Shown piece after piece: positions 1 through 22,512 of a stretch of DNA of 22,512 nucleotides (position 1 is its first letter; each line of letters opens with the position of its first letter). The notes under the pieces were generated by a model. It did not search any database. It had not been told where the DNA came from and saw nothing but the letters and a program-made list of their open reading frames with translations. Source of the DNA: a virus; IMG/VR virus record IMGVR_UViG_3300017978_000297, positions 1-22,512 of that record; one strand, 5' to 3'. Both the position numbers and the translations under genes were made by a program.

Positions 1-46
1 ACTTGATTTTTGTTTTATAATATCCTGTTTCTACTCGTTCTAATGC
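1..46. repeat. Terminal direct repeat, copy 1 (identical to 22467..22512); circular-closure overlap or short terminal redundancy
   Basis: acttgatttttgttttataatatcctgtttctactcgttctaatgc is present 46/46 nt at both ends of the window. Confidence 0.95.
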
Positions 47-265
47 GCCTTTCATGACTAAACCGTTTAGCGTCCAGTTAATGGCCTTCCAATTTAAACC
101 AGTTACGTGCATGAGATAGTTAATGTTGGTTGTCGTGTCGACCAGTGTGTTTTTATAACACTGTTGTAGGATTATGACCTGTTCAACTGTAAGTGAGCCA
201 TCGCGCTCTAATGCGTTGGTGTGTGCAATGTAATCTTGAAGTGATGGTAATGATGCTAGTGCCAT
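1..265 (-). CDS. Small winged-helix DNA-binding protein, 88 aa. Its 3' end runs off the left window edge and the stop codon lies across the circular junction.
   Basis: Not in the ORF track. Hand translation from the ATG (rc of 263..265) gives MALASLPSLQDYIAHTNALERDGSLTVEQVIILQQCYKNTLVDTTTNINYLMHVTGLNWKAINWTLNGLVMKGALERVETGYYKTKIK. The frame stays open to position 2. The next codon is position 1 plus 22466 and 22465, which reads TAA. The C-terminal half resembles a MarR/wHTH recognition helix plus wing. The gene starts 19 nt downstream of the preceding gene. Confidence 0.6.
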   Translation of the reverse strand, partial: MALASLPSLQDYIAHTNALERDGSLTVEQVIILQQCYKNTLVDTTTNINYLMHVTGLNWKAINWTLNGLVMKGALERVETGYYKTKIK

Positions 266-283
266 GATGATTTTGATTATTTG

Positions 284-742
284 TTATTTTAAATTAGGAA
301 TTGCATTTAGGTATGCTTGATGCGCTTTTTCTGGTGTATTGTATGAACCTAAAAATCTTCGTTTACCATCAACATAAATTCTTGCGTGATATTTAGTGTT
401 GGTTGCTTTGTATACACCTGTAGGTAAATCTCTGATTTTATCTTTACTTGCATTTAATCTGTTAGTAATAATTTGCAAATTATCTAATCTATTATCTAAT
501 CTATCAGCATTAATGTGATCTACCACTAATCTATGCCCATCTGGTACGTGATCTAAATAGGTTATAGCCATTAATTGATGAATTCTAAATACTTTACATA
601 CACCATCGTTACACAAATTAACACGTAAATAATTAGTGTTTAAATATGCACGTAGCATTAGTCCTGTTTTTAGATTTTTTACTTCTCCGTTTGTTGATAT
701 ACCATAATTTTTGTAACCTGGTATTTGTTTAAAGTTTTCCAT
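284..742 (-). CDS. Free-standing HNH homing endonuclease with N-terminal NUMOD4-like motif and C-terminal AP2 DNA-binding domain
   Basis: IPGYKNYGISTNGEV is NUMOD4-like. VVDHINADRLDNRLDNLQIITNRLN is an HNH_3-type H-N-N core. TGVYKATNTKYHARIYVDGKRRFLGSYNTPEKAHQAY is an AP2-type strand-strand-strand-helix motif. Confidence 0.85.
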   Translation of the reverse strand: MENFKQIPGYKNYGISTNGEVKNLKTGLMLRAYLNTNYLRVNLCNDGVCKVFRIHQLMAITYLDHVPDGHRLVVDHINADRLDNRLDNLQIITNRLNASKDKIRDLPTGVYKATNTKYHARIYVDGKRRFLGSYNTPEKAHQAYLNAIPNLK

Positions 743-1246: not shown

Positions 1247-1258
1247 ATTGATAATTTT

Positions 1259-2506
1259 TTATGATTTAAATCCAACATATATAAATGTCGTGTTGAGTGA
1301 GTATGCAGCCCATGTTGCAGAACTAATAGTACTTGGTAATACTGTTTGACCGCCAACATTACTTTGTACTGACATAGCTCTACTCATTGTAGAACTATCT
1401 AATGCAGCATGGTATACAACTGATGACGAGTTAGTAGGTCCAAATACACCAACACCACTAGCACCACCTACTTGTAATATACCAATATAATACATATTTG
1501 TTGGTGAAGTTGGAATTGTAAAGTTAACATTTGTGATTGTTTTTCTACCAGTAGTAGATGAATCAACTGAACCAAATGTAGTTACTAATGTATCTGGATA
1601 AAAGTTACCACTTGCATCTGTTGTACATGTGTATAATCCTAAAGTAATAGTTGAACCAGCTTGTGCAGTAGCAGAAACTAATATTGCAACATCTTTAATT
1701 ATTTCACCTGCAGATAAACTTTGAACTAATACGTATCGAGGTGTTCCAACAGTCAATGTTTGTGTTGAACCAGAGAAAGTTAATGCAGGTGTATTTAATT
1801 TATAAAATGGAAATCCACCCATATTAGATGGAGATTTAATACTATTAAACATGTTTGCACTTCCACCACCGCCAGATGTACCAGATGATCCGCTTGTTCC
1901 AGCAGTTCCATCTATACCGCTTGTGCCATCAACACCAGATGTTCCGTCTTGACCAATTCCGCTTGTTCCGCTTGTACCGTTCTGACCATCTTGACCAGAA
2001 GTTCCACTTGTTCCATCTATACCAGATGTTCCAGTAATACCAGATGATCCGCTTGTTCCTGACGTACCAGGTGTACCAGGTTGTGAGATACCAGAAGTTC
2101 CACTTGTTCCATTAGTACCATTAGCACCGTTTAAACCAGAAGTTCCAGATGAGCCTGTTTGACCGCTAGTTCCACTTGTACCAGCAGATCCTTTTGTACC
2201 AGAAGTTCCAGACGTACCAGAAATACCAGCAGATCCAGAAACACCGCTTGTTCCAGATGAGCCATCAACTCCACTAGTTCCGCTTGTACCAGAAAGACCA
2301 CCTGCACCAATTATAGTGGCTGATGAAAAATCTTGCTCACCATACCATTTGATGGCTGCATCAGCACCACCTCTAACTTGCATAGGTAAATTATGACCTT
2401 CGCCGTCTTGTAAATTTTTAAAGGTTGAATCTAAAGCATTTTCATCTTCAGTTTTGATCATACCTTTGTATGTGTCCTTTAATTTTTTGTTGTGTAAACT
2501 ACCCAT
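1259..2506 (-). CDS. Collagen-like tail fibre / receptor-binding protein
   Basis: About 150 aa of Gly-X-Y triplets (GTSGTSGVDGSSGTSG...) are flanked by a globular N-terminus and a beta-rich, Ser/Thr/Gly-rich C-terminal domain of about 200 aa. It is the last large gene of the structural block. Confidence 0.8.
   Translation of the reverse strand: MGSLHNKKLKDTYKGMIKTEDENALDSTFKNLQDGEGHNLPMQVRGGADAAIKWYGEQDFSSATIIGAGGLSGTSGTSGVDGSSGTSGVSGSAGISGTSGTSGTKGSAGTSGTSGQTGSSGTSGLNGANGTNGTSGTSGISQPGTPGTSGTSGSSGITGTSGIDGTSGTSGQDGQNGTSGTSGIGQDGTSGVDGTSGIDGTAGTSGSSGTSGGGGSANMFNSIKSPSNMGGFPFYKLNTPALTFSGSTQTLTVGTPRYVLVQSLSAGEIIKDVAILVSATAQAGSTITLGLYTCTTDASGNFYPDTLVTTFGSVDSSTTGRKTITNVNFTIPTSPTNMYYIGILQVGGASGVGVFGPTNSSSVVYHAALDSSTMSRAMSVQSNVGGQTVLPSTISSATWAAYSLNTTFIYVGFKS
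1859..2308 (-). repeat. Collagen-like Gly-X-Y triplet-repeat region inside the fibre gene (aa 67-216)
   Basis: The 9-nt periodic low-complexity run (ggtacnagygga-type) is visible on the plus strand as accagaagttccacttgt-type repeats. The Gly register shifts at GIS-QPG (aa 139-144) and at GIG-QDG (aa 183-188). Confidence 0.85.
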
Positions 2507-2711
2507 TGTTGTTTGTGTTTTTTATTCCTTTTAATCGTGTGACAGCATCTATAGTGCCTTCGACACCAATATATGCAGTTGCGATGATCACCCAAGAGTC
2601 TCCGTCTAATTTACCCATAAAAAGGGCTACAGCTGATAGCATAAAAACCATCAGTTTTCGACTAATCCACTTAGAAGTTAATCTATCAATCATTTCCTTG
2701 CTCACCGCCAT
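2499..2711 (-). CDS. Small membrane protein, holin candidate
   Basis: 70 aa with two hydrophobic segments, LMVFMLSAVALFMG and WVIIATAYIGV, and a charged C-terminus. It overlaps the flanking genes by a few nt. Confidence 0.45.
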   Translation of the reverse strand: MAVSKEMIDRLTSKWISRKLMVFMLSAVALFMGKLDGDSWVIIATAYIGVEGTIDAVTRLKGIKNTNNNG

Positions 2712-5101: not shown

Positions 5102-5626
5102 TTACTCACCAACTAATGTAGCAGCTACTTCGTATGAAGGAGCAGGCTCATAGCCAGTTAATGTAATGTTGTAGCCGTTTAGATCACCGTATGCAACACC
5201 TGTAGCAGCAGACCCAGCTGTTAATTCAGCTCCTCTGGTAATACCAGCTGACCAAAATTTACCGTTGTTGTCTTTTACCACTACCAAAAGGTTAGTCGCT
5301 TGTCCTAACAATTTGAAGATGTCTCTTTTAGCACTCTCTAATTTTCTGAAAATAATGTTAACATCTTGTTGGTAGAAGATTGAACCGTTCTCTGAAGAAG
5401 CAGTTGCAGCTTCTGTGAAGCTAGATGTTTGTTTATTTACAGCAAATTTGAAAAAATCTGCAGCGTCTACAGCACTACCGTCGTATGAAATACCAGTAAC
5501 TTTACCTGCAGTTTCAGTAATTGTAGCAGGAGCTGCTACTACTGATGCAATGTAAACGTACTCAATACCACCTTGGTTATCGCGACATCCTAAATTTTCG
5601 ATGCCAGCTGTTAAAATACATGCCAT
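5102..5626 (-). CDS. Putative major tail (tube-like) structural protein
   Basis: 174 aa, immediately after the major capsid gene and sharing its apparent codon style. The pattern NQGGIEYVYIA ... FKFAVNKQTSSFTE ... VVVKDNNGKFWSAGITRG ... GDLNGYNITLTGYE resembles tail-tube proteins of Bacteroidota phages. The function is not secure. Confidence 0.45.
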   Translation of the reverse strand: MACILTAGIENLGCRDNQGGIEYVYIASVVAAPATITETAGKVTGISYDGSAVDAADFFKFAVNKQTSSFTEAATASSENGSIFYQQDVNIIFRKLESAKRDIFKLLGQATNLLVVVKDNNGKFWSAGITRGAELTAGSAATGVAYGDLNGYNITLTGYEPAPSYEVAATLVGE

Positions 5627-7192: not shown

Positions 7193-8422
7193 TTAATGCA
7201 ATTCAATAAACATACCTTCTACACTTAGTCCTTTGAGCTCTCCTCTTTTGATTTTTTGCCAAGTTTGTTCATCATTGATACGATAGCTGAGCATCCACGT
7301 CCCAATAGGAAGATTAAAGCCATATTTAGCAGATTTATCAAATTTAGTGTCTTCGATAATCCAAGATTCAAGTAAAGTATTATCAGCCACGACAGCGCCA
7401 TTATGATTAACGTCAGTATTGTTCTGATATGACTTTTTGAAAAAGCGTTCAGCAATTTCTCTAATAGTTTTTTTACTAAAGTAGACATAATATAACTCAC
7501 CAGTTTCTTCATCTTTTCTTAATATAAATTTATTTGGTATCATAGCTGGTGCGATAATGATACGTTCATCTTCGTTTTCAACTGCAAAACTAGTGTGAGT
7601 AAATCTTGCATTGTCAGGTACTGCACCGTTAGGTGATGGAGCCATAGTATTGTTACTCAAACCTGCTGCACCATTTGCTGGCCCTTTATTAATATAAATT
7701 TCTTGACCATCTTGTTGTGTAATTACTTGGATTTCATTCCAATAATGGCGACAATTTACGCCTGATTTCCAATCTAATAAAGGATTTGCATCTGCTCCAT
7801 GTGCTTCAGATCTTTCACCTGTTGAAATATATTCACTCATGTTTATACTTGCCATATTACGTAATTCATCGCGCGTATAGAGTCTGTTTAGTCTCAACAT
7901 AGCTTTACAGAAGTTTCTTTCAGCTGATGGTCCAGCATATTGGTATTTAGTTACACTAGATCTGTTTTCACCAGCTAATGCATCTAAACCAGCTAATCCT
8001 TTTAAATAATCACCTAATGTAGCGAATTCTGTTTTACCTAATTCTAACCAGTGTGCTGCTGGATTTACATCTTCGCCTAATTCAGCTGCCATTTTTAGAA
8101 TGCCTTCTTCTTGTTCTTCACTTAATATGTGGTGTGAGCATTTATGTGAGCTCATTTGTTCTTCTTGCCAAGTTGCATAACAAATAGCTGCAGCTTGATC
8201 TTGTTCATAACCTTCATTGATTAATTCAGGAATACAACGTCCAATATACTCTTCTTCTGTTTCACCAGTGTTTACGTCTACAAAAGATTCTTTTTTAAAT
8301 GCAAAGAAGTCTACTTCAATAGCTGGTGAATCTACAATCGATACAACAGATACTCCAGCGTCTTCTGTATTAATTTGTTCGTGGTTGATAACTAATTCAA
8401 CGATTTTTTTGATAGGTCTCAT
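7193..8422 (-). CDS. XkdF-type (Peptidase_S78_2-like) prohead protease with a large inserted segment carrying MuF/SPP1-gp7-like head-morphogenesis motifs
   Basis: The N-terminal strand is VSVVSIVDSPAIEVDFFAFKK. The C-terminal part, IIIAPAMIPNKFILRKDEETGELYYVYFSKKTIREIAERFFK...NHNGAVV...ESWIIED...GTWMLSYRINDEQTWQKIKRGELKGLSVEG, follows the B. subtilis XkdF pattern. The insert (aa 45-283) contains CIPELINEGYEQDQAAAICYATW and AERNFCKAM...LYTRDEL...GVNCRHYW. Confidence 0.7.
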   Translation of the reverse strand: MRPIKKIVELVINHEQINTEDAGVSVVSIVDSPAIEVDFFAFKKESFVDVNTGETEEEYIGRCIPELINEGYEQDQAAAICYATWQEEQMSSHKCSHHILSEEQEEGILKMAAELGEDVNPAAHWLELGKTEFATLGDYLKGLAGLDALAGENRSSVTKYQYAGPSAERNFCKAMLRLNRLYTRDELRNMASINMSEYISTGERSEAHGADANPLLDWKSGVNCRHYWNEIQVITQQDGQEIYINKGPANGAAGLSNNTMAPSPNGAVPDNARFTHTSFAVENEDERIIIAPAMIPNKFILRKDEETGELYYVYFSKKTIREIAERFFKKSYQNNTDVNHNGAVVADNTLLESWIIEDTKFDKSAKYGFNLPIGTWMLSYRINDEQTWQKIKRGELKGLSVEGMFIELH

Positions 8423-8430
8423 ATATTTAA

Positions 8431-10497
8431 TTATAATTTTGCTAATCTGTTAATTTTAGCTGTTGCTTCTTGGCTTGATGTCATATCATCTGATACAACG
8501 TATGTTTTGATAGGCACATTTACTGAAGATTCTACAGCTGATTGTAATTCTGCAATCGATGGTACTAAACCACCATCTGCAAATTTAGGTCTTGCTACAG
8601 AATTTAACGACATAGCCATTTGTGCTACGCCTGGTTGAGCCATAGCATATTTATTAATAATAAATTCACCGCCTTCAGCCTCAATAGGTACTCCACCGCT
8701 CGAGTGTGAATTACCAACGATTAAACCACCTGTTGCAGCTTTTGGTGTTTCAACTTTTACAATGTCTCTTACTTGTTTTAAACCTGCAGCAATTTGCACA
8801 CCTGCCATAACTGGTTTTAACCAAGTTGGTATAATAGTTGGATCCTTCATAACTTGCGAAGCACCTAAATATGTGTTAATAGTCGCTTGCGCAATCGCAG
8901 CTGATTTTCCTGCTGCTGTTTCTTTACCTAAAAGTTCTGAAACTGAACCAAATAAACCAGCTGAGATAGCTAAAGATCTTTGAGCTGAAGCTTCTTTATT
9001 TTTAACACGTAAATCATCATAGAATGCTTCGATTCTTGCTCTTTCTTCTTCAGTACCTTTTAATTTATCTAATTCTGCTAATGCTTTTGTTTCTTCTTCG
9101 TCTAAACGAACAGCTTCAGCTTCAAAAACTGTTTGATCTTTGGCTATTTTATACTCTTCTAATAAAAGATCTTTGGCTTGTTGATTAGTTAAAGCTTGTT
9201 CTTTACGTTTATTAGCATAAAAACCTTCAATTACATCTACTGATTTTTCATATTCTTCTGCAGTCATTAATTTTTCATCAAGACGTGCTTTTGCAGCAGC
9301 CATTGCATCTGCTTCTTCTTTATCAGTAATAGCTTTGGTATCAGCATACGTTTTCTCAGTCATTTGGATTTTATAACCAAGTAACCATTCTTCTTGTGCT
9401 TTTACTCTGTCTTTTTCTTTTTGATTTTCTTCTTCTGCTTTTAAATTCTTTTCTTGAGTAGCTTTATCGACTGCTTGCTTTTCTAAAACAGCGTATGCAG
9501 AGTTCAATTGCTTGATTTGTTCAGCAGTTGCACCTTTTTCTTTTAACATCTTTAGATCAGCCTCTTTCTGAGCTAATACCGTGCGTCTGGCGATCTCGAT
9601 AGTGTCAGTTAATTGTTTATCTTGCAGATCCTTTAATTTATCAGCCACAGCTTCTGCATTCTCTCTACGTTTGTTTTCAGCCGCTATAGCTTTTTCGCTG
9701 GCTTCTTTACGTTTAGCAGATAACTCATCTTGCTTTTTCTTTTCAGCTTCTGCTCTTTCTTTAGATTTTTCTGCAGCTGCTTGTTGTACTTCATCAATAT
9801 TAAAAGTAGCTTCTTTGATTTTCTTTTCAGATATACCTAAAGCAGCAACCATATCACCGAAACCTTCAGCGACAAATTCAAGCACATCAGCAAAGGCATT
9901 AAAAATAGGTAGAGCTACTTTTTCTACTAAAGCTAAAATAGGGCCTATGATTTTTGAAAAGGCACTACTGATTTTATTTAATGTTGCTTGACCTTCAGCT
10001 GTTGAGCCTAAAGCCTTTTTCATTAACATAAATGCACCAACGATACCTGCAATAACTGCAAGTATTGGATTAGCCATAAAGATTTTAAAGACACCATCTA
10101 AACCTTTCATTGCATTACCAGCTGCACCAGCAGGACCTGGCAATGAGGCTAATTGATCATCAAACTGACTAGATTGAAATTTAGTCTTTTCTAAACTTTC
10201 TTCGAGATCATCTAATTGACCACGAAGTGCTTTAAACTTTACTTTATCACCTGCTGCAGCAGCTTGTTGTAATTCTACTTGAGTTTTACGAATCTGTGTT
10301 TGTAATTTAGTAAAACTATCACCAGTTTCATCATTCTGTTTGGCTTGCTTTTTACTCGAATCACTAGATTTTTTTTGGGCTTTCTGTACTTCTTCATTTT
10401 CTTGTACCAAACCACCCATGGCTTTTTGTAAATCTTCAACAGATTTTACTTCTTGATCTATACCATCTATTTTAAAGCTAATGTTAACTACCGCCAT
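8431..10497 (-). CDS. Tape-measure-like protein (coiled-coil with internal hydrophobic segments); alternatively an internal or ejection protein
   Basis: 688 aa with long Lys/Glu/Ala coiled-coil stretches. Hydrophobic blocks are ANPILAVIAGIVGAFMLM and IIGPILALVEKVALPIF. The C-terminus carries a Gly-rich motif, GGLIVGNSHSSGGVPIEAEGGEFIINKYA ... FADGGLV. Confidence 0.6.
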   Translation of the reverse strand: MAVVNISFKIDGIDQEVKSVEDLQKAMGGLVQENEEVQKAQKKSSDSSKKQAKQNDETGDSFTKLQTQIRKTQVELQQAAAAGDKVKFKALRGQLDDLEESLEKTKFQSSQFDDQLASLPGPAGAAGNAMKGLDGVFKIFMANPILAVIAGIVGAFMLMKKALGSTAEGQATLNKISSAFSKIIGPILALVEKVALPIFNAFADVLEFVAEGFGDMVAALGISEKKIKEATFNIDEVQQAAAEKSKERAEAEKKKQDELSAKRKEASEKAIAAENKRRENAEAVADKLKDLQDKQLTDTIEIARRTVLAQKEADLKMLKEKGATAEQIKQLNSAYAVLEKQAVDKATQEKNLKAEEENQKEKDRVKAQEEWLLGYKIQMTEKTYADTKAITDKEEADAMAAAKARLDEKLMTAEEYEKSVDVIEGFYANKRKEQALTNQQAKDLLLEEYKIAKDQTVFEAEAVRLDEEETKALAELDKLKGTEEERARIEAFYDDLRVKNKEASAQRSLAISAGLFGSVSELLGKETAAGKSAAIAQATINTYLGASQVMKDPTIIPTWLKPVMAGVQIAAGLKQVRDIVKVETPKAATGGLIVGNSHSSGGVPIEAEGGEFIINKYAMAQPGVAQMAMSLNSVARPKFADGGLVPSIAELQSAVESSVNVPIKTYVVSDDMTSSQEATAKINRLAKL

Positions 10498-10566: not shown

Positions 10567-13500
10567 TTAGCAAGTAGGTCCCCATATAACTCTATGTTCA
10601 CCTCCAAATGCTGTTAATGTTCCGTATACTACGCCTGGACAACTAATCATTGTATCAAAACCAGGATCTAAAAGAATAAAGTTATAGGTACCGTCACAAT
10701 TTTGATATTGTACTTCTACTTGGAATTCAGATTCGTTGATAACGCTAACTTCTCTACAATCACCTATTGGTATTGGGTCGCATATACCATTAGCATTTGC
10801 ATAGTTTTGTCCATCGTTATTAAAGTTTGCATCAGCTATAGCCTCTGCATCTGCTTGTGAAATAGTTGATGTGTATGTGTTACTATACGATACTGAAGTG
10901 CCAGTATAACCAGGTGCACAATCATTTTTAGTAAATGTACCAGATCTCGGTGCTGAATACGTTGTAGGTGGTGTAACTGTACATGTACCGTTGATATTTG
11001 CATAGTTTTGACCATCTGTATTAAAGTTTGCATCAGCTATAGCATTTGCATCTGCTTGTGAAATCATAGATGTGTATGTATGCTCATAAAATACTGAAGA
11101 ACCTATGTAACCAGGATCACAATTATTTCTTGTAAAATTACCAGATCTATATGCTGAATATGAAGTACAAACTGCATTAATAACTTGATATGCTGTACAA
11201 CCAGCTGCATCAGTTACAGTTAAAGAGTATGCTGCGTCTGGCACACCTGTTAAATTTGGTGTAGTTGCTCCATTAGACCATAAATAGGTAAAAGGTGCAG
11301 TACCACCAGATAAAAGAGATGTGATATCGTTTGAATTTGAACCACTACAACCAGCAGATAAATTCAATTGCATTTCTGGTGAATTTGTAATTGACCAAGC
11401 TTGAGATGCAGTTCTACCAGCAGCATCAGTGACTACCACTACATATAAACCAGCAGCAACGTTAGTTATACTAGGTCCAGTTAGAGATGGTTGGTTAACT
11501 CCATCTTTTGTCCATGCGTATGTGTATGGTGAAGTACCTCCTATTGCAGAGATTTCTATATTACCACTAGCACTACCAGCACATGATACTAAATCTGTAG
11601 AAACTGTAATAATTTCTAAAGGAGCAATTGGTGAGAAGTTTAATAATTTAATCAAATCAACTTTAACAGATGCTAATTCACCAATTGGTGCATCATAGAT
11701 TTTTTGTATACGCCAGTATGCATTTTCAACCCAAATAACATCATCAAAAGTGATAGCTGCTAAATCTGTTACATCTAACATAAAATATGCTGTTAGTTTT
11801 CTAGCATTTGGATCATATAAACTATCAATGTAATCCTTCCAATATTTTTCATATACTGAACTACCTAATAAACCATTATAACCAGTGATTGTTTCGCCAT
11901 AATATGGCGCTTCAATTTCCCAGTTTAGGTTTACATCATCAGCAAGCGGTGGCCAATTTTCATGATATGATACAATTGGTGAAACATCGATTTGTTGATT
12001 AGTTTCTAAATGCCATGACACTAGTGATGTGATTAAACCATTATAAAATAATAAACGTGGTTCAACTTCAATAGGAATATGTCTTGTAACATTATCTTTT
12101 GTTTCTTCTTTATGTAAATGTGCTATGATCCAATTATTTGCTGGATCTCCACCTTCTATTTGTTTGATTGGTGTTGAAGCAAAAGGAGATATGTTAGCTC
12201 TTTCACCATCTATTAATTCATTTTGTGAATCATAAATAAAACGACCAAATGTTTCACCAAACGTATCTTTATTTTCTGTGCTCAACACGTCTTTACCTTC
12301 AATATCTGAAAATGTAATAGTTGAAGACTGTGAATAAAAAACTGGTTCGATTGCAATGTCTTTTGTGTAATCTAATTTTGAATTCCAATCAAAAAGATCA
12401 CCTTGACCAATATAAAGATACCATGGTTCAATAGTAAATTGATTAGGTTTTATTAAATCTGGTACCATTACTAATCTAAAACGATTTAGAATAGCTTTGA
12501 TAAAATCAATTTGTTTGATTTTAGAAGACAAAAGATCTGCAACAGTTTCACCACCAGGAGCTTGTGTACAGAAAAACTGACCATTGTATGTTGTGAAATC
12601 TGGTTTTATAGTACCAGCAGCTTCGATAGAACCTCTAATATCGATTTGATCACCTGTTATTAACTGTACAGAAGTTGGTAATGAAATTGAAAGGTTTTGA
12701 TAAACATATTGACTGTTTTGTGCAAAAGTAATTACAGATGTTTGCGCAATCTGCACATTATTTTTAAAAATGTATAATTTACATGTGAAATTACCAGCAG
12801 GACCGTTGTTGGTAAAATTAAAAGTACCACTAGAACTAAAATTATAAAATCCGTTTTGAGGTGCTGTGTATTTTCCATTTTGAGGGTTGTATACGTTATT
12901 AAAATCATTTACTTCAACATCAAATTCAATAATCTCTGGTATACCTTGATTAGATACGAAAGTATTTAATGAAGTGTATGCACTCATAGTATTACCAGCA
13001 CCAACCACTTTAAGTGGAGATGCTTCATTACCAAAAGCTGACAAATAGATTTTTTTAAAAAAAGCAGAGTTTAAAAAATTAGATTGATATGTATAACCAG
13101 TTTGATTAAAAATGGCATCAAAAACAGATTTAACTCTAATCATTGGTCTCAATTGAAAAACTGATAATGGATGTGAGCCTTGTGTAAAATTTTTAGGACC
13201 ATTTAATCTAACCATAGATTGCAATGGGTTTCCGCTATTATCATACGCTACACCAAAATCTATTAAAGGATAAACGATATCACCGTTGAATATACCTGCA
13301 TTTGGATCTAATGGATCAGCATCCCATGAATCAATAATAAGTTGTCTAGATTGCAAGTGTTCATATTGTGATAAATCTAAATTACTCAAATAACCTTGAC
13401 CAACTGCTGATGCAAAGTCTCTAACTTCACCCATAAAAAGAGTTTCATAATCTACTTTGCCAATAGTTTTATCAACTATAACACGTTGTAGTCTAATCTG

Positions 13501-18729: not shown

Positions 18730-19260
18730 TTAATAATTTGATAGGATCCACTCTCTCATTTCATTAACTGCTGTAGAGATTGAGGTTCGAGCTATGCCTG
18801 TTTGGCGTGCTAATTCTGAATAATTTGGTGTCTCAAGATATAATTTAAACAGTTGAGCACGATACCAAAGTGCTGGATCCTTTGATGATAAACCAACGTT
18901 AAGTGCAGTTTCACATCTTTCAATTGTAATATCTAAATCATGATCGTATTGATCACGTGGAATATTATCGTGGTTACTGGTTAACCCAACCATTCTGCCT
19001 TTTTCTCTATAAATGGTATGATACTCACTTGTCGAAGATCTGTAAGCATTCATCATTGTTCTAACTATAAACCATCTAGCGCCACCGTCTTGAACTATGG
19101 CTTCTCTATTTTTATGCACCAAAAAGACCTCGATCACATAATGTGCAAGGTCTTCTGAGTTTTTAGAGCCAGCAATATTAATGGCCCATGATATTATGTC
19201 TTTATAATTCTGTTCTATCCACTGATTGGCTGTCATTAGCTTGATATGCCTCGTATGCAA
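18730..19260 (-). CDS. Sigma-70 family (ECF-like) RNA polymerase sigma factor
   Basis: Region-2-like: SEDLAHYVIEVFLVHK ... ARWFIVRTMMNAYRS. Region-4 HTH: RAQLFKLYLETPNYSELARQTGIARTSISTAVNEMREWI. The start could instead be the Met at 19236. Confidence 0.6.
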   Translation of the reverse strand: MHTRHIKLMTANQWIEQNYKDIISWAINIAGSKNSEDLAHYVIEVFLVHKNREAIVQDGGARWFIVRTMMNAYRSSTSEYHTIYREKGRMVGLTSNHDNIPRDQYDHDLDITIERCETALNVGLSSKDPALWYRAQLFKLYLETPNYSELARQTGIARTSISTAVNEMREWILSNY

Positions 19261-19442: not shown

Positions 19443-19724
19443 TTATGAGTTTAATTTTCTATCAATCCATTCGGCTGTAAATGATATAGTGCCTGAAATC
19501 ATGAGAGCTTCCATGGCGCTGTGAGCCATAAAACCAGATATTACTATACCAAACCAAAAACCTGTGCACATGCAGCAGCGGGTGAAGTCGGCGGTTATAC
19601 CTAAACCTTCTCTGATCCAGTTATATGGTTTAGAGTTTAATAACACAGCCCAAAAGGCCGCTAGCATGATACATTTAATTAGTAGTTCCATATTTGTTAA
19701 GATTGCGACTGTGATATAACTCAA
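19443..19724 (-). CDS. Small integral membrane protein (DUF1360-like C..C.GFW pattern)
   Basis: Hydrophobic segments are LIKCIMLAAFWAVLL, CCMCTGFWFGIVISGFMA and ALMISGTISF. The true start may be the Met at 19691, which would reduce the overlap with the upstream gene. Confidence 0.5.
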   Translation of the reverse strand: MSYITVAILTNMELLIKCIMLAAFWAVLLNSKPYNWIREGLGITADFTRCCMCTGFWFGIVISGFMAHSAMEALMISGTISFTAEWIDRKLNS

Positions 19725-19944
19725 AGTCTTTTATTATTTGTAGGTTTTCGTAGTTTTCAGTAGTTAAATATTTGGCTTTTAACCAATCTAAAAGAGCAAT
19801 CATAGGCATGCCAAAGTCAATTGAAGCATTGTTAATTAACATATACATGTAATTATAGCATTCAATCTTTTCTGAACGTTTCATGTCTTTGTATTCATCA
19901 TACGTAAACATGAATTCAAAGTCTGCGTCTTCGTTTTGAAACAT
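19675..19944 (-). CDS. Hypothetical small acidic protein, paralog of 20072..20308
   Basis: Motifs shared with the neighbour are DFEF(MF)TY(D/Q)EY..M, Y.L.NN, YE and KDF..Y. Confidence 0.5.
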   Translation of the reverse strand: MFQNEDADFEFMFTYDEYKDMKRSEKIECYNYMYMLINNASIDFGMPMIALLDWLKAKYLTTENYENLQIIKDFELYHSRNLNKYGTTN

Positions 19945-20071
19945 TATCCCCTGATTTTTTTTCGGTATATAGATCTTTTTAAATCTTCTTTAATCCTATG
20001 TATCTTTGTTTCAAAGCGTTGCCTTTTAGTTATATCTTGAGCGCTTTTAAACTCGATATTAATTATATAAT

Positions 20072-20308
20072 TTAGAAGTCGTCTTCGAAGTAATTCCTAA
20101 AATCTTTGAGTACTATAGCAAACTCATAGTGTTGATCCTCAATGGTTTGTTCAAATAACATATCATAAATCTCTCTTTGCGACATGTCATACGCTAAAGC
20201 TTCATTATTAAATAAAGCATAAAGGGCAAAGAATATTTGTTCTCTGTCCTTTATGTCCATATTTAAATATTCTTGATACGTAAATTCAAAATCAAATTGA
20301 TCTACCAT
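20072..20308 (-). CDS. Hypothetical small acidic protein, paralog of 19675..19944
   Basis: See the paralog entry. 78 aa, overlapping the upstream gene by 17 nt. Confidence 0.5.
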   Translation of the reverse strand: MVDQFDFEFTYQEYLNMDIKDREQIFFALYALFNNEALAYDMSQREIYDMLFEQTIEDQHYEFAIVLKDFRNYFEDDF

Positions 20309-20984
20309 CCTCTTTTGGTTTTATTACTTTATTATAATACCATTCTTTTTTCTTTTGTAATTGGCGCTCTCTGTTTTTTTCATACCATTCTCTGGCTTGT
20401 TGCTGTTTTAAACTTTTAGGTTTAGGTTCAGCTTTTGGTTTTTTAGGTTTATCTACCATACTGTGTGAGATATGTCGTTTTGTAAACACATCATTGTAGA
20501 TAGGTGCTAAAATATGGGTTACAGAAATCTTTGAAGACTTGTTATAACTTTTTGAATTTGCAGGTCTAATGATTGCAATCTCTGTAATTTCTTGTGTCTC
20601 ATCAACATTAGCTAATCTGCCTAGTAAATATGACCATATAAGGGCAGCTTCTTGTGATAGATCGTATTCTATACACTCAGTATAAATTGATCTTCTTCTG
20701 ACGTCTCCCATGTGTTCTGCTGCACAACGTAGAGTTACTTTGCCATCTACACCTCTAATAGTTTCAATCAAACCTAATTCTTTTAACTTCTTGGTCTCTT
20801 GAAATGCTTTGCCTTGTGGTGCATTGTAGTTAATTGTATCGATATCGTCGGTGTACATTTCAAAGTAATGATCTGGGCCATAAATAGCTGCAAACTTTGT
20901 TAATAAACCTATTAATAAAACTTGGCCTTCTTTGGGGTTGGTTGAAAGCCATTGGGAATAACTTGATGGTATGTATAGTTTCAT
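20292..20984 (-). CDS. wHTH-containing protein with a Lys/Pro-rich basic C-terminus; replication- or regulation-associated by inference
   Basis: QGKAFQETKKLKELGLIETIRGVDGKVTL looks like an HTH plus wing. The C-terminus is KPKKPKAEPKPKSLKQQQAREWYEKNRERQLQKKKEWY. It sits in the early/replication block. Confidence 0.45.
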   Translation of the reverse strand: MKLYIPSSYSQWLSTNPKEGQVLLIGLLTKFAAIYGPDHYFEMYTDDIDTINYNAPQGKAFQETKKLKELGLIETIRGVDGKVTLRCAAEHMGDVRRRSIYTECIEYDLSQEAALIWSYLLGRLANVDETQEITEIAIIRPANSKSYNKSSKISVTHILAPIYNDVFTKRHISHSMVDKPKKPKAEPKPKSLKQQQAREWYEKNRERQLQKKKEWYYNKVIKPKEDGRSI

Positions 20985-20986
20985 TT

Positions 20987-21352
20987 TTATTTATGTGTTT
21001 TAGACCAAGTTAAATTATCTACGTGATTGTTTTCTCTGTTACCGTCTATGTGTTTAACAAATCTGCAGTTATTTGGGTTTTCTAAAAAGTTTAGGGCTAC
21101 AAGACGATTAACGTATTCACCAGTTGGAATACCTAGCATTTTAGGAGATCCTGGTTTACCTTTCCAAAATTGGTTAACTTCTCTTTCACTAATCAAAGAC
21201 ATATCATCTCTGTAGTGTTTTAGGATTACTCTACCATGATCTGATATTAACCACTCTGATATCCCTACATATTCAGTCTTTGTGCCATTACTTTGTGGTA
21301 TTCTATAACCATAGGGTTTCTTTTTAAAGACTTTAAATTGTTCTGCTTTCAT
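20987..21352 (-). CDS. Free-standing HNH endonuclease
   Basis: VKHIDGNRENNHVDNLTWS is an HNH_3-type core. The upstream motif WLISDHGRV is NUMOD4-like. Confidence 0.75.
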   Translation of the reverse strand: MKAEQFKVFKKKPYGYRIPQSNGTKTEYVGISEWLISDHGRVILKHYRDDMSLISEREVNQFWKGKPGSPKMLGIPTGEYVNRLVALNFLENPNNCRFVKHIDGNRENNHVDNLTWSKTHK

Positions 21353-21491
21353 AAATTATATATTATTTCTTATTATTGTTTATTATTATCGTTTTTTTAT
21401 TTTTGGGTTTGTAGGTAGAAATTGAAGAAGAATGTGATGTGTTAGCATCATCATTTTTCTGGTTTATAATTCTTTTAGAATTATTTACCTT

Positions 21492-21558
21492 GTCCTCTGG
21501 GGATATACCTTTTTGTCCCAAAGGATATACCTTTTAGTCCCAAGGGATATACCTTTTA
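21492..21558. promoter_or_regulatory. Three tandem iterons of about 22 bp (core GGATATACCTTTT); candidate replication origin or operator array
   Basis: Copies are gtcctctggGGATATACCTTTTt (21492..21514), gtcccaaaGGATATACCTTTTa (21515..21536) and gtcccaagGGATATACCTTTTa (21537..21558). Cores start at 21501, 21523 and 21545, a 22-nt phasing. A very AT-rich tract of about 100 nt lies on the right side. Confidence 0.6.
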
Positions 21559-21689
21559 AATTTAATACCATATTCTTATTTGTTATTTTAAAGCAATTTA
21601 AAGAACTTTATTTTTTAGATAAGTATTTTTATTACTTTAATATTTGAGTTAAACCTGGTTATTCTGTGTAATTCAGGTAACGATCTAAC

Positions 21690-22385
21690 CTATAGGTCTA
21701 AAGTTTGTAACCAAGCATCTAGTTCTTCTGGCGTAGGGTCGTCTTTTAAATCAATATCGTTATTTGGTCTTTTATAATTTAAAGGTGTTAAATCATATTC
21801 AACGTCTATATCATTTAATGAAGAAAAATCAATAGACGTTTCTTCGTCTAGCTCTTTAATTCTTTCTTTATTATTTTCTTTATGTTTATTTAATTTCTTT
21901 ATATGTTTACCAGGGGTATCAGCTTTGTGCTCCCCGTTATCAGCTTTGTGCTCCCCGTTATCAGGTTTGTGCTCCCCGTTATCAGGTTTGTTGCTCTCTG
22001 TTATCAGGTTTTCATCAACTAACATGTTCTCTTGGTTATCAGCTTTGTGCTCCCCGTTATCAGGTTTGTAATCAGTAATAGCAGTAAAAGACAATGTAAA
22101 TTTATTATTTTTACTACCAGCTTTATTATTAGAATCTGGTATTATAATGCCATTTTTTGTTAATACTTTAAATTGTTTACATATTCCCATTCTACTAGCA
22201 TTCATTTTGTTTGCGTATGTTTCGTGTTTCCATGTAATAGAGCCATTCATTCTAATATCGTTCATCATTAAAGATACTAATATTTTTTGAAAATCAGATA
22301 AATTGCTTCTAGTTATAAATGGATAAAGCGGAGCATATTCTCCTTCATCCATTAGTAATTGTATAAATTCTTGATTTCGTGTCAT
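21690..22385 (-). CDS. Replication-initiator-like protein (lambda O-like layout): N-terminal wHTH, central heptapeptide repeats, acidic C-terminus
   Basis: The N-terminus, LSDFQKILVSLMMNDIRMNGSITWKHETYANKMNASRMGICKQFKVLTKNGIII, follows the Phage_rep_O-type wHTH pattern. The centre is KPDNGEHKADNQ...KPDNGEHKPDNGEHKADNGEHKAD. It is adjacent to the iteron-bearing intergenic region. Confidence 0.5.
   Translation of the reverse strand: MTRNQEFIQLLMDEGEYAPLYPFITRSNLSDFQKILVSLMMNDIRMNGSITWKHETYANKMNASRMGICKQFKVLTKNGIIIPDSNNKAGSKNNKFTLSFTAITDYKPDNGEHKADNQENMLVDENLITESNKPDNGEHKPDNGEHKADNGEHKADTPGKHIKKLNKHKENNKERIKELDEETSIDFSSLNDIDVEYDLTPLNYKRPNNDIDLKDDPTPEELDAWLQTLDL
21917..22073 (-). repeat. In-frame 21-bp tandem repeats inside the initiator-like gene
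   Basis: Exact copies of tatcagctttgtgctccccgt lie at 21917..21937, 21938..21958 and 22037..22057. A one-substitution copy is at 21959..21979 and a degenerate copy at 21980..22000. Partial copies are at 22001..22013 and 22058..22073. Confidence 0.9.
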
Positions 22386-22466
22386 TTGTTATTATGTTGT
22401 TTTTATTTCATACGCGATATTGTGTATGAATAGGATCGATTCGAATTGTTCTAATTTTGTCATGTT

Positions 22467-22512
22467 ACTTGATTTTTGTTTTATAATATCCTGTTTCTAC
22501 TCGTTCTAATGC
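22467..22512. repeat. Terminal direct repeat, copy 2 (identical to 1..46)
   Basis: 46/46 nt identity with the window start. It also duplicates the last 15 codons of the junction-spanning wHTH gene, whose TAA occupies 22465..22467. Confidence 0.95.

Follow-up and report, generated by a model that had tools for sequence, protein, structure and literature searches.

The 22-nt repeats found in a 337-nt non-coding gap of the window, the 22,512-nt stretch of viral DNA that was analysed here as a whole, form part of a longer conserved cassette of about 130 nt, as judged from its alignment with copies in other phages, and this cassette consists of three iterons, an A+T-rich spacer and a small covarying hairpin. 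The window array is probably an orphan copy of a foreign origin cassette, one that comes from another replication module. The cassette would then be an inert remnant, at a module boundary, of recombination between phages exchanging such modules, and we give this reading a probability of roughly 0.6.

The first and the last 46 nt of the window (1..46 and 22467..22512) are identical, and the window is therefore a complete genome, assembled as a circle of 22,466 bp, in which all genes are on the minus strand and the ORF at 1..265 runs on across the junction. On the plus strand, three exact copies of GGATATACCTTTT are located at 21501-21513, 21523-21535 and 21545-21557, at a step of 22 nt, in the gap 21353..21689 between a gene designated gene A and an HNH gene (20987..21352, minus strand; PHROG HNH, E 5e-13). 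Tandem Repeats Finder reported 2.6 copies with a period of 22 at 21501..21558 (94% matches, score 102), and a separate repeat search returned the same three copies of GGATATACCTTTT with spacing 22/22. When up to two mismatches are allowed, GGATATACCTTTT has five matches in the window against 0.76 expected, a count reached in none of 100 shuffles, and all three exact matches of the window fall in the array. There is no convincing ORF in the gap, the sole one being a low-complexity ORF of 52 aa with a TTG start. Read in the direction of the genes, that is on the minus strand, core 1 (AAAAGGTATATCC, 21545..21557, in the unit 21536..21557) is an exact match that lines up in register with those of seven other copies, and core 2 (21523..21535, in the unit 21514..21535) and core 3 (21501..21513, followed by a degenerate palindrome, CCCCAGAGG) are likewise exact and in register with the other copies. 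Moreover, the 22-nt units each carry a short palindrome, CCC-N2-3-GGG, and the 13-nt core is pseudo-symmetric (GG-ATATA-CC). With three exact cores 22 nt apart, the array has the iteron feature of at least three direct repeats of about 17-22 bp in helical phase, and the claim of the earlier note that three head-to-tail repeats phased at 22 nt lie in this 337-nt gap is borne out, with exact copies at 21501, 21523 and 21545.

Other copies of the array were collected in several ways. The exact two-core pattern gave four contigs in IMG/VR (L009-L012), which have only about 95 nt in common with the window (21464..21558, 81% identity); a relaxed pattern gave L131, L133 and L134 in metagenomes together with duplicates of L011; L142 came from a protein-guided scan, and L145-L148 came from a protein search. 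A loose pattern of two cores, ATACCTTT-N14-ATACCTTT, was rejected, as its matches were almost all due to chance and, among the matches listed, only L009-L012 passed filtering. Two other candidates, L137 (a Treponema MAG) and L130 (a high-G+C integrative element), have only pattern-forced bases in common with the array and are unrelated or at most analogous. In L137, 22-nt units with four copies of AAAGGTTATACCTTTGCACCCT are present at about 2400..2520, and in L130 four copies of GGGTATACCTTTGCAACCGAAC are present at 8363..8440, by an integrase gene and a primase/DnaB-like gene.

The whole cassette, at about 21420..21558 on the minus strand (from the iterons to the hairpin about 21432..21557), is the only stretch that the window has in common with L009-L012, L131, L133, L134 and L142, to which it aligns by blastn with 81-84% identity over 95-128 nt, the nearest sampled copy having only 83% identity. 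In every copy found there are exactly three cores, exactly 22 nt apart. The conserved extension of the array runs to the side opposite the AT tract that the earlier note had pointed out, and it contains first the spacer and then the hairpin. The spacer (21455..21491, minus strand; about 82% A+T by hand count) is kept in all copies and holds a 13-nt imperfect palindrome (inverted repeat 21461-21473/21477-21489); it is the A+T-rich tract within the conserved unit, and is presumed to be the unwinding element of the cassette. The small hairpin, ATGATGATG-CTAACA-CATCACAT, is located at the distal end of the cassette (21432..21454, minus strand), and its DNA fold has an energy of -4.8 kcal/mol (z -2.6) in the window and of -4.8 to -7.4 kcal/mol (z -1.9 to -4.2) in five L134-like copies, the fold being weaker in both L011 copies. 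In addition, four of its pairs have changed on both sides among the copies, of which there are only seven sequences, and in the same seven sequences 79% of the cells are paired as against at most 52% in slid-partner controls. The homology to the copies inside initiator genes ends just after the hairpin in the window and in a second, non-coding copy of L011, and about 15 nt further in L142. Because the homology ends near the hairpin in these non-coding copies, the cassette of about 130 nt behaves as a unit.

The copies that lie in coding sequence all have the same gene context. The array is within a gene for a protein of 158-171 aa in L011 (982..1467), L133 (1402..1878), L134 (676..1191) and L145 (8001..8513), and these proteins match the PHROG family 'DnaD-like helicase loader' (E 6.5e-8) and, weakly, 'replication initiation O-like'. 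On its 5' side, the initiator gene has a primase-like gene for about 300 aa (PHROG DNA primase, E 1e-7) as neighbour, and on its 3' side a DnaB-type helicase gene for about 430 aa (Pfam DnaB_C, E 5.6e-17; PHROG, E 8e-25). Since 22 is not a multiple of 3, each core falls in a frame of its own in these resident genes, and the peptides encoded are RYIP, KVYP and KGIS; therefore, the repeat is kept as DNA and not as peptide, and the non-coding copies, too, keep the unit. The assignment of the array as iterons of the replication-origin type is supported by these results and by analogy, and every copy is labelled 'origin' because of its gene context and this analogy. Hence, in the claim of the earlier note that iterons and an unwinding AT tract make up an origin layout, the part on the iterons stands, given that the same array is present in DnaD/O-like initiator genes by DnaB-type helicase genes. 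The 158-171-aa initiator family and its origin cassette in uncultured phages are previously undescribed, and tblastn of the L134-type initiator against cultured phages gave no match.

A flanking palindrome is also known from ori-lambda. Its iterons, and then an AT-rich tract, are located in the linker-coding middle of gene O (PMC7466680). The resident copies are similar to this system in having iterons, then the AT spacer and then the hairpin, all in the linker part of an initiator gene of the wHTH type. The differences are that the cassette has three iterons with a period of 22 nt, whereas lambda has four to six of about 19 bp, that no relation of its initiator to lambda O was detectable in sequence apart from the weak PHROG 'O-like' matches, and that the helicase is encoded by the phage; in the window, moreover, the cassette is outside any initiator gene and the initiator is absent. 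The gene contexts place the home of the cassette in a sister group of uncultured phages, namely in the middle part, coding for the linker, of the gene for the DnaD/lambda-O-like initiator of 158-171 aa. There, the N-terminal domain of the initiator would bind the three iterons, in analogy to lambda O at ori-lambda and to gp38 at oriL of phage SPP1, the AT spacer would then melt, and the helicase encoded next to it would be loaded.

The window itself encodes no such initiator. Its minus-strand frame through the array matches residues 95-140 of the L134 initiator (tblastn, 54% identity, E 3e-9), and the initiator-family HMM has a match in the window at the cassette (6e-11). This frame, which is open in the resident initiator genes, contains a TAA stop at 21534..21536 (minus strand), as seen in the frame translation and in the tblastn alignment of KRYIPWD*KVYPLGQKGIS with ERYIPKGAKVYPLGRKGIS of L134, and due to this in-frame stop the cassette is non-coding in the window. 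Neither the N-terminal domain of the initiator nor the primase-like protein nor the helicase was detected by tblastn and family HMMs in all six-frame ORFs of the circularised genome, and the PHROG annotation of the large window genes gave structural, packaging and HNH functions only. The cognate initiator is encoded in the same genome as the array in L011, L133, L134 and L145, as indicated by their co-location, and this is not the case in the window. We also considered whether the stretch is a pseudogene that corresponds to the 3' half of an initiator gene. Although the match in frame is genuine, the homology ends at the hairpin as it does in the non-coding copy of L011, and an ectopic cassette fits better. 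Among the other genes of the window, a gene for a 1068-aa protein with a Hoc-like Ig domain contains a 201-nt tandem duplication (10795..11160; 1.8 copies, 82% matches).

The nearest relatives of this phage do not have the cassette. No match was obtained when the whole window was compared by megablast with 50,697 phage records, and the large terminase showed 31.5% identity at best in tblastn, which indicates that there is no cultured relative. Eight relatives were found in IMG/VR via the conserved 230-aa protein (20292..20984). They are collinear with the window on both sides, and the stretch between the small wHTH gene and the HNH gene is variable: L001 and L006 have a gene for a primase/DUF5906-type protein of 594 aa and, after it, a non-coding gap with repeats of its own; L005 has genes for a 240-aa replication initiator, a DnaC-like loader and a protein of 84 aa; L002 and L003 have a 177-aa initiator and a 115-aa gene; and L004 has a gene-A-like 189-aa initiator and the same 115-aa gene as L002 and L003. 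This stretch of L001-L006 holds four other, unrelated replication modules, and from its variable contents it follows that it is the exchangeable replication-module slot of this phage group. The motif GGATATACC was found at none of the eight loci of the IMG/VR relatives. In the gap between the 594-aa primase/DUF5906 gene and the HNH gene of L001 (5369..5404 and 5556..5580; also L006, 1798..1833), CAGCTTTGTCCA occurs three times and GGCTTTGTCCATC twice, and these repeats are a candidate for the origin of the alternative replication module. This 22-kb genome has two HNH genes, at 284..742 and 20987..21352, one on either side of the stretch that comprises the replication slot and the small wHTH gene.

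The closest relatives, L140 and L141, are 99.5% identical to the window over 21551..22512 (about 99-99.5% for the DNA of gene A) and 93.7% identical over 19600..21362. They retain gene A, the HNH gene and the 230-aa gene, and they have no core motif; the window segment 21363..21550 is replaced in the alignment by 294 nt with a gene for 85 aa, and the cassette is absent. Relatives that keep the flanking genes without the array had been named beforehand in the earlier note as evidence against its reading, and L140 and L141 are such relatives. As for conservation of the motif in related phages, which it had also brought up, the motif is absent from the nearest relatives and from the eight slot loci, and it is conserved, as the cassette, in another phage group. 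A conserved junction upstream of genes, ACGATAATAATAAACAATAATAAGAA.TAATATATAATTT (21353..21395, minus strand), stands before two different genes in the alignment, the HNH gene in the window and, in L141 (3812..3856), the 85-aa gene. This AT-rich junction of about 45 nt may be a gene-boundary recombination joint, and neither a target-site duplication nor any other transposon-like sign of insertion was seen by eye at the junctions. On the reading preferred here, the window contains an ectopic, initiator-less copy of the cassette at the downstream boundary of the exchangeable replication-module slot, which would be dispensable and would fire only with the foreign initiator supplied in trans.

Besides the window, non-coding copies are present in L011 and L142. 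The second copy of L011 (11091..11232) is in a divergent intergenic region on the same contig as the initiator gene with the resident copy (1257..1398), and the copy of L142 (3099..3240) lies between a 53-aa gene and scaffold- and capsid-like genes. Both are the same unit, from the iterons through the hairpin. All three orphan copies hold the whole cassette and start at the first iteron, which hints at selection or a site-specific mechanism. Furthermore, perfect cores make up nine of nine in the orphan copies and seven of 12 in the resident copies (one-sided Fisher p 0.04, calculated from seven copies that are not independent). All three cores of the window are perfect, and one palindrome of the window copy is degenerate; perfect cores are not expected of an inert relic, except in the case of a recent acquisition. 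One more element of the window has a counterpart in L011, which is a distantly related phage: a 176-aa protein with a C-terminal HTH (18730..19260) shows 38% identity to a protein encoded at the same position upstream of the terminase genes, and it may be a sigma-like or late regulator.

In SPP1, oriL is located in gene 38 by a DnaB-family helicase gene and oriR is located in non-coding DNA among late genes, and both are bound by gp38 (PMC6316719). The two-copy layout of L011, with one copy in the initiator gene and the other in non-coding DNA, is similar to this, and so is the position of the L142 copy among head genes. A second copy like oriR beside an encoded initiator is therefore seen in L011 and not in the window, which differs from SPP1 in having the non-coding copy only and no cognate binding protein, and there is no sequence similarity to the SPP1 origins. 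It is also known that an origin separated from its initiator acts only in trans, by titrating the cognate initiator, as in lambda ori plasmids and in lactococcal 'phage-encoded resistance' (PMC4488673). Those are laboratory constructs or fragments borne by the host, whereas the orphan of the window is carried by another phage genome and is known here from sequence.

Considering these systems, it is conceivable, though clearly less probable than a recombination leftover, that the cassette is under selection and acts in trans, by origin piracy in a co-infection with a phage that has an L134/L011-type initiator, by serving as a decoy for the initiator, or as a fork-stalling site similar to SPP1 oriR. 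The completeness of the orphan copies and their unbroken cores are consistent with such a role, as are three independent non-coding insertions, in the window, L011 and L142. The carriers are related phages with exchangeable modules, so that co-infection is plausible, and ectopic origin copies arrest lambda (PMC4488673), while gp38 at oriR of SPP1 was proposed to stall forks (PMC6316719). However, only one contig of its lineage has the cassette, the nearest relatives being without it, one palindrome of the window copy is degenerate, and the core statistics come from only seven non-independent copies. The more specific proposal that phages trade the origin cassette of about 130 nt and that some of them keep an initiator-less copy in order to exploit or sabotage a co-infecting relative, so that piracy or decoy would be carried out by a phage and not by a host or a satellite, is somewhat more doubtful still. 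The inert leftover of recombination is the reading that we retain.

The phage's own initiator-origin pair is likelier to be gene A (21690..22385, minus strand) with its internal 21-nt array and AT stretch, because of its in-gene iterons, its family profiles and its wHTH. According to family profiles, AlphaFold2 and Foldseek, the 231-aa product of gene A is an initiator from another family, in which a wHTH at the N-terminus is joined by a linker of repeats to a helix at the C-terminus. The second repeat family that the earlier note had placed in the neighbouring gene is indeed there: the repeat search found five copies of AAACCTGATAACGGGGAGCAC with a period of 21 nt (21927..22067, minus strand), and matching arrays are present in homologues. 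Just downstream of these iterons, an AT-rich stretch (21849..21908, minus strand) is the 8th least stable 60-bp stretch of the genome. In the gene A family, seven of 14 members match PHROG 'replication initiation O-like' and six of 14 match 'replication initiation protein', gene A itself being below threshold. In the fifteen homologues of gene A, the N-terminal domain is conserved and is accompanied by 7-aa repeats in varying number (21-nt repeats in the DNA), an AT-rich 'HIKKLKETNKE' segment and an acidic C-terminal helix. All gene A homologues examined carry in-gene 21-nt arrays, which differ in sequence and copy number, and the DNA repeats are kept in L138 and L139 as AAACCTGATAACGGGGTGCAC and CAAAGCTGATAACGAGGAGCA; no member of the family has a GGTATATCC array. 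In L004, a 22-nt repeat, AGACCTGTAACCTGGAGGAACC, is present in 3.8 copies in the coding sequence of the gene-A-like initiator (475..558), and since this period is not a multiple of 3, successive copies shift frame, pointing to a function at the DNA level.

The AlphaFold2 model of gene A shows a confident wHTH at residues 1-110 (pLDDT about 90), followed by a linker that is disordered and by a helix at the C-terminus. In RepA_N plasmids, iterons are found inside the rep gene. The best Foldseek matches of the gene A wHTH are the N-domain of staphylococcal plasmid RepA (pSK41/pTZ2162; PDB 4pql, 4pt7, 5kbj) and the N-terminal domain of DnaD (2v79); these matches are weak (E 7e-3 to 4e-2, target TM about 0.5, 14-17% identity), and they concern gene A, which is not the expected binder of the 22-nt array. 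Gene A combines a wHTH, a linker with in-gene iterons and a family-level match to initiators, features that are DnaD- and lambda-O-like. A sequence-profile search of the PDB with the gene A family gave nothing useful, and a search of IMG/VR with gene A for related loci gave no relative. The comparison of the gene A family with the L134-type family by hhalign gave a probability of 1.5%, i.e. no homology.

The AT-rich tract downstream of gene A (21559..21689, minus strand) lies outside the cassette in the alignment. It is common to L141, L140 and L139, being identical in L141 and recognisable in L139, which are both without the array, and therefore the tract belongs to the module of gene A and not to the cassette. 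In L139, it is the upstream region and the first codons of a DUF5675 gene, of which the window keeps the first six codons (ATG at 21569..21571). The G+C content at 21550..21649 is 15%, and 21583..21642 is the 5th least stable 60-bp stretch of the genome in a nearest-neighbour scan, where it ranks alongside ordinary intergenic regions. The part of the proposed origin layout that concerned an unwinding tract at 21560..21650 thus falls away, since this tract is not in the cassette and is common to the array-less L141 and L139.

It is unlikely that one of the phage's own wHTH proteins, namely the product of gene A, the protein of 230 aa or that of 88 aa whose ORF wraps around 1..265, uses the array as a working origin or as an operator- or partition-like site, although three phased repeats in the largest non-coding gap, by AT-rich DNA and just downstream of an initiator gene, would suit such a site, and in L001 and L006 the matching gap after the primase-type gene also bears repeats. 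L140 and L141 have all three wHTH genes without the array, six other relatives (L001-L006) have the 230-aa gene without GGATATACC, so that in these close relatives the wHTH genes are kept and the site is not, and the gene A homologues L138 and L139 have no such array downstream. Moreover, the array is native to an unrelated initiator family and the AT tract is not linked to it. The idea in the earlier note that one of the three wHTH proteins serves the array finds no support, given the unrelatedness of the gene A family and the finding of no homologue of the cognate DNA-binding domain, in sequence searches that may miss a very divergent binder encoded in the window. Nor does host DnaA, which it had named as another possible binder, find sites here, as the gap 21353..21689 contains no DnaA boxes (TTATCCACA-like), and the window has four with one mismatch against 7.8 expected.

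Least probable of all is that the cassette is no origin but a transcriptional element, a structured RNA, a packaging site or another protein-binding site that overlaps the initiator gene: a conserved hairpin could act in RNA and the non-coding copies of L011 and L142 are upstream of structural genes, but four independent loci have the cassette inside the initiator gene of a primase-initiator-helicase module, the terminase genes are about 3 kb away, the Rfam 15 covariance models gave nothing at E up to 1 in 21353..21689, no terminator-like site was found at the hairpin or the cassette, and promoter-like sites are at the level of chance (11 against 8.7 expected for a sigma-70 consensus, which may not be of the host's type).

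The cassette joins the in-gene iteron origins of the lambda and SPP1 type, and its orphan state is the sole unusual aspect. As to which of the two arrays is the origin, gene A is paired with the 21-nt array in its own coding sequence, and the 22-nt array is paired with an initiator family that is absent from this genome. The results give a view, at the level of base pairs, of replication modules, and even bare origins, moving between related phage genomes. Should the orphan copies turn out to be under selection, one phage would here, in nature, exploit or jam the replication initiator of another.
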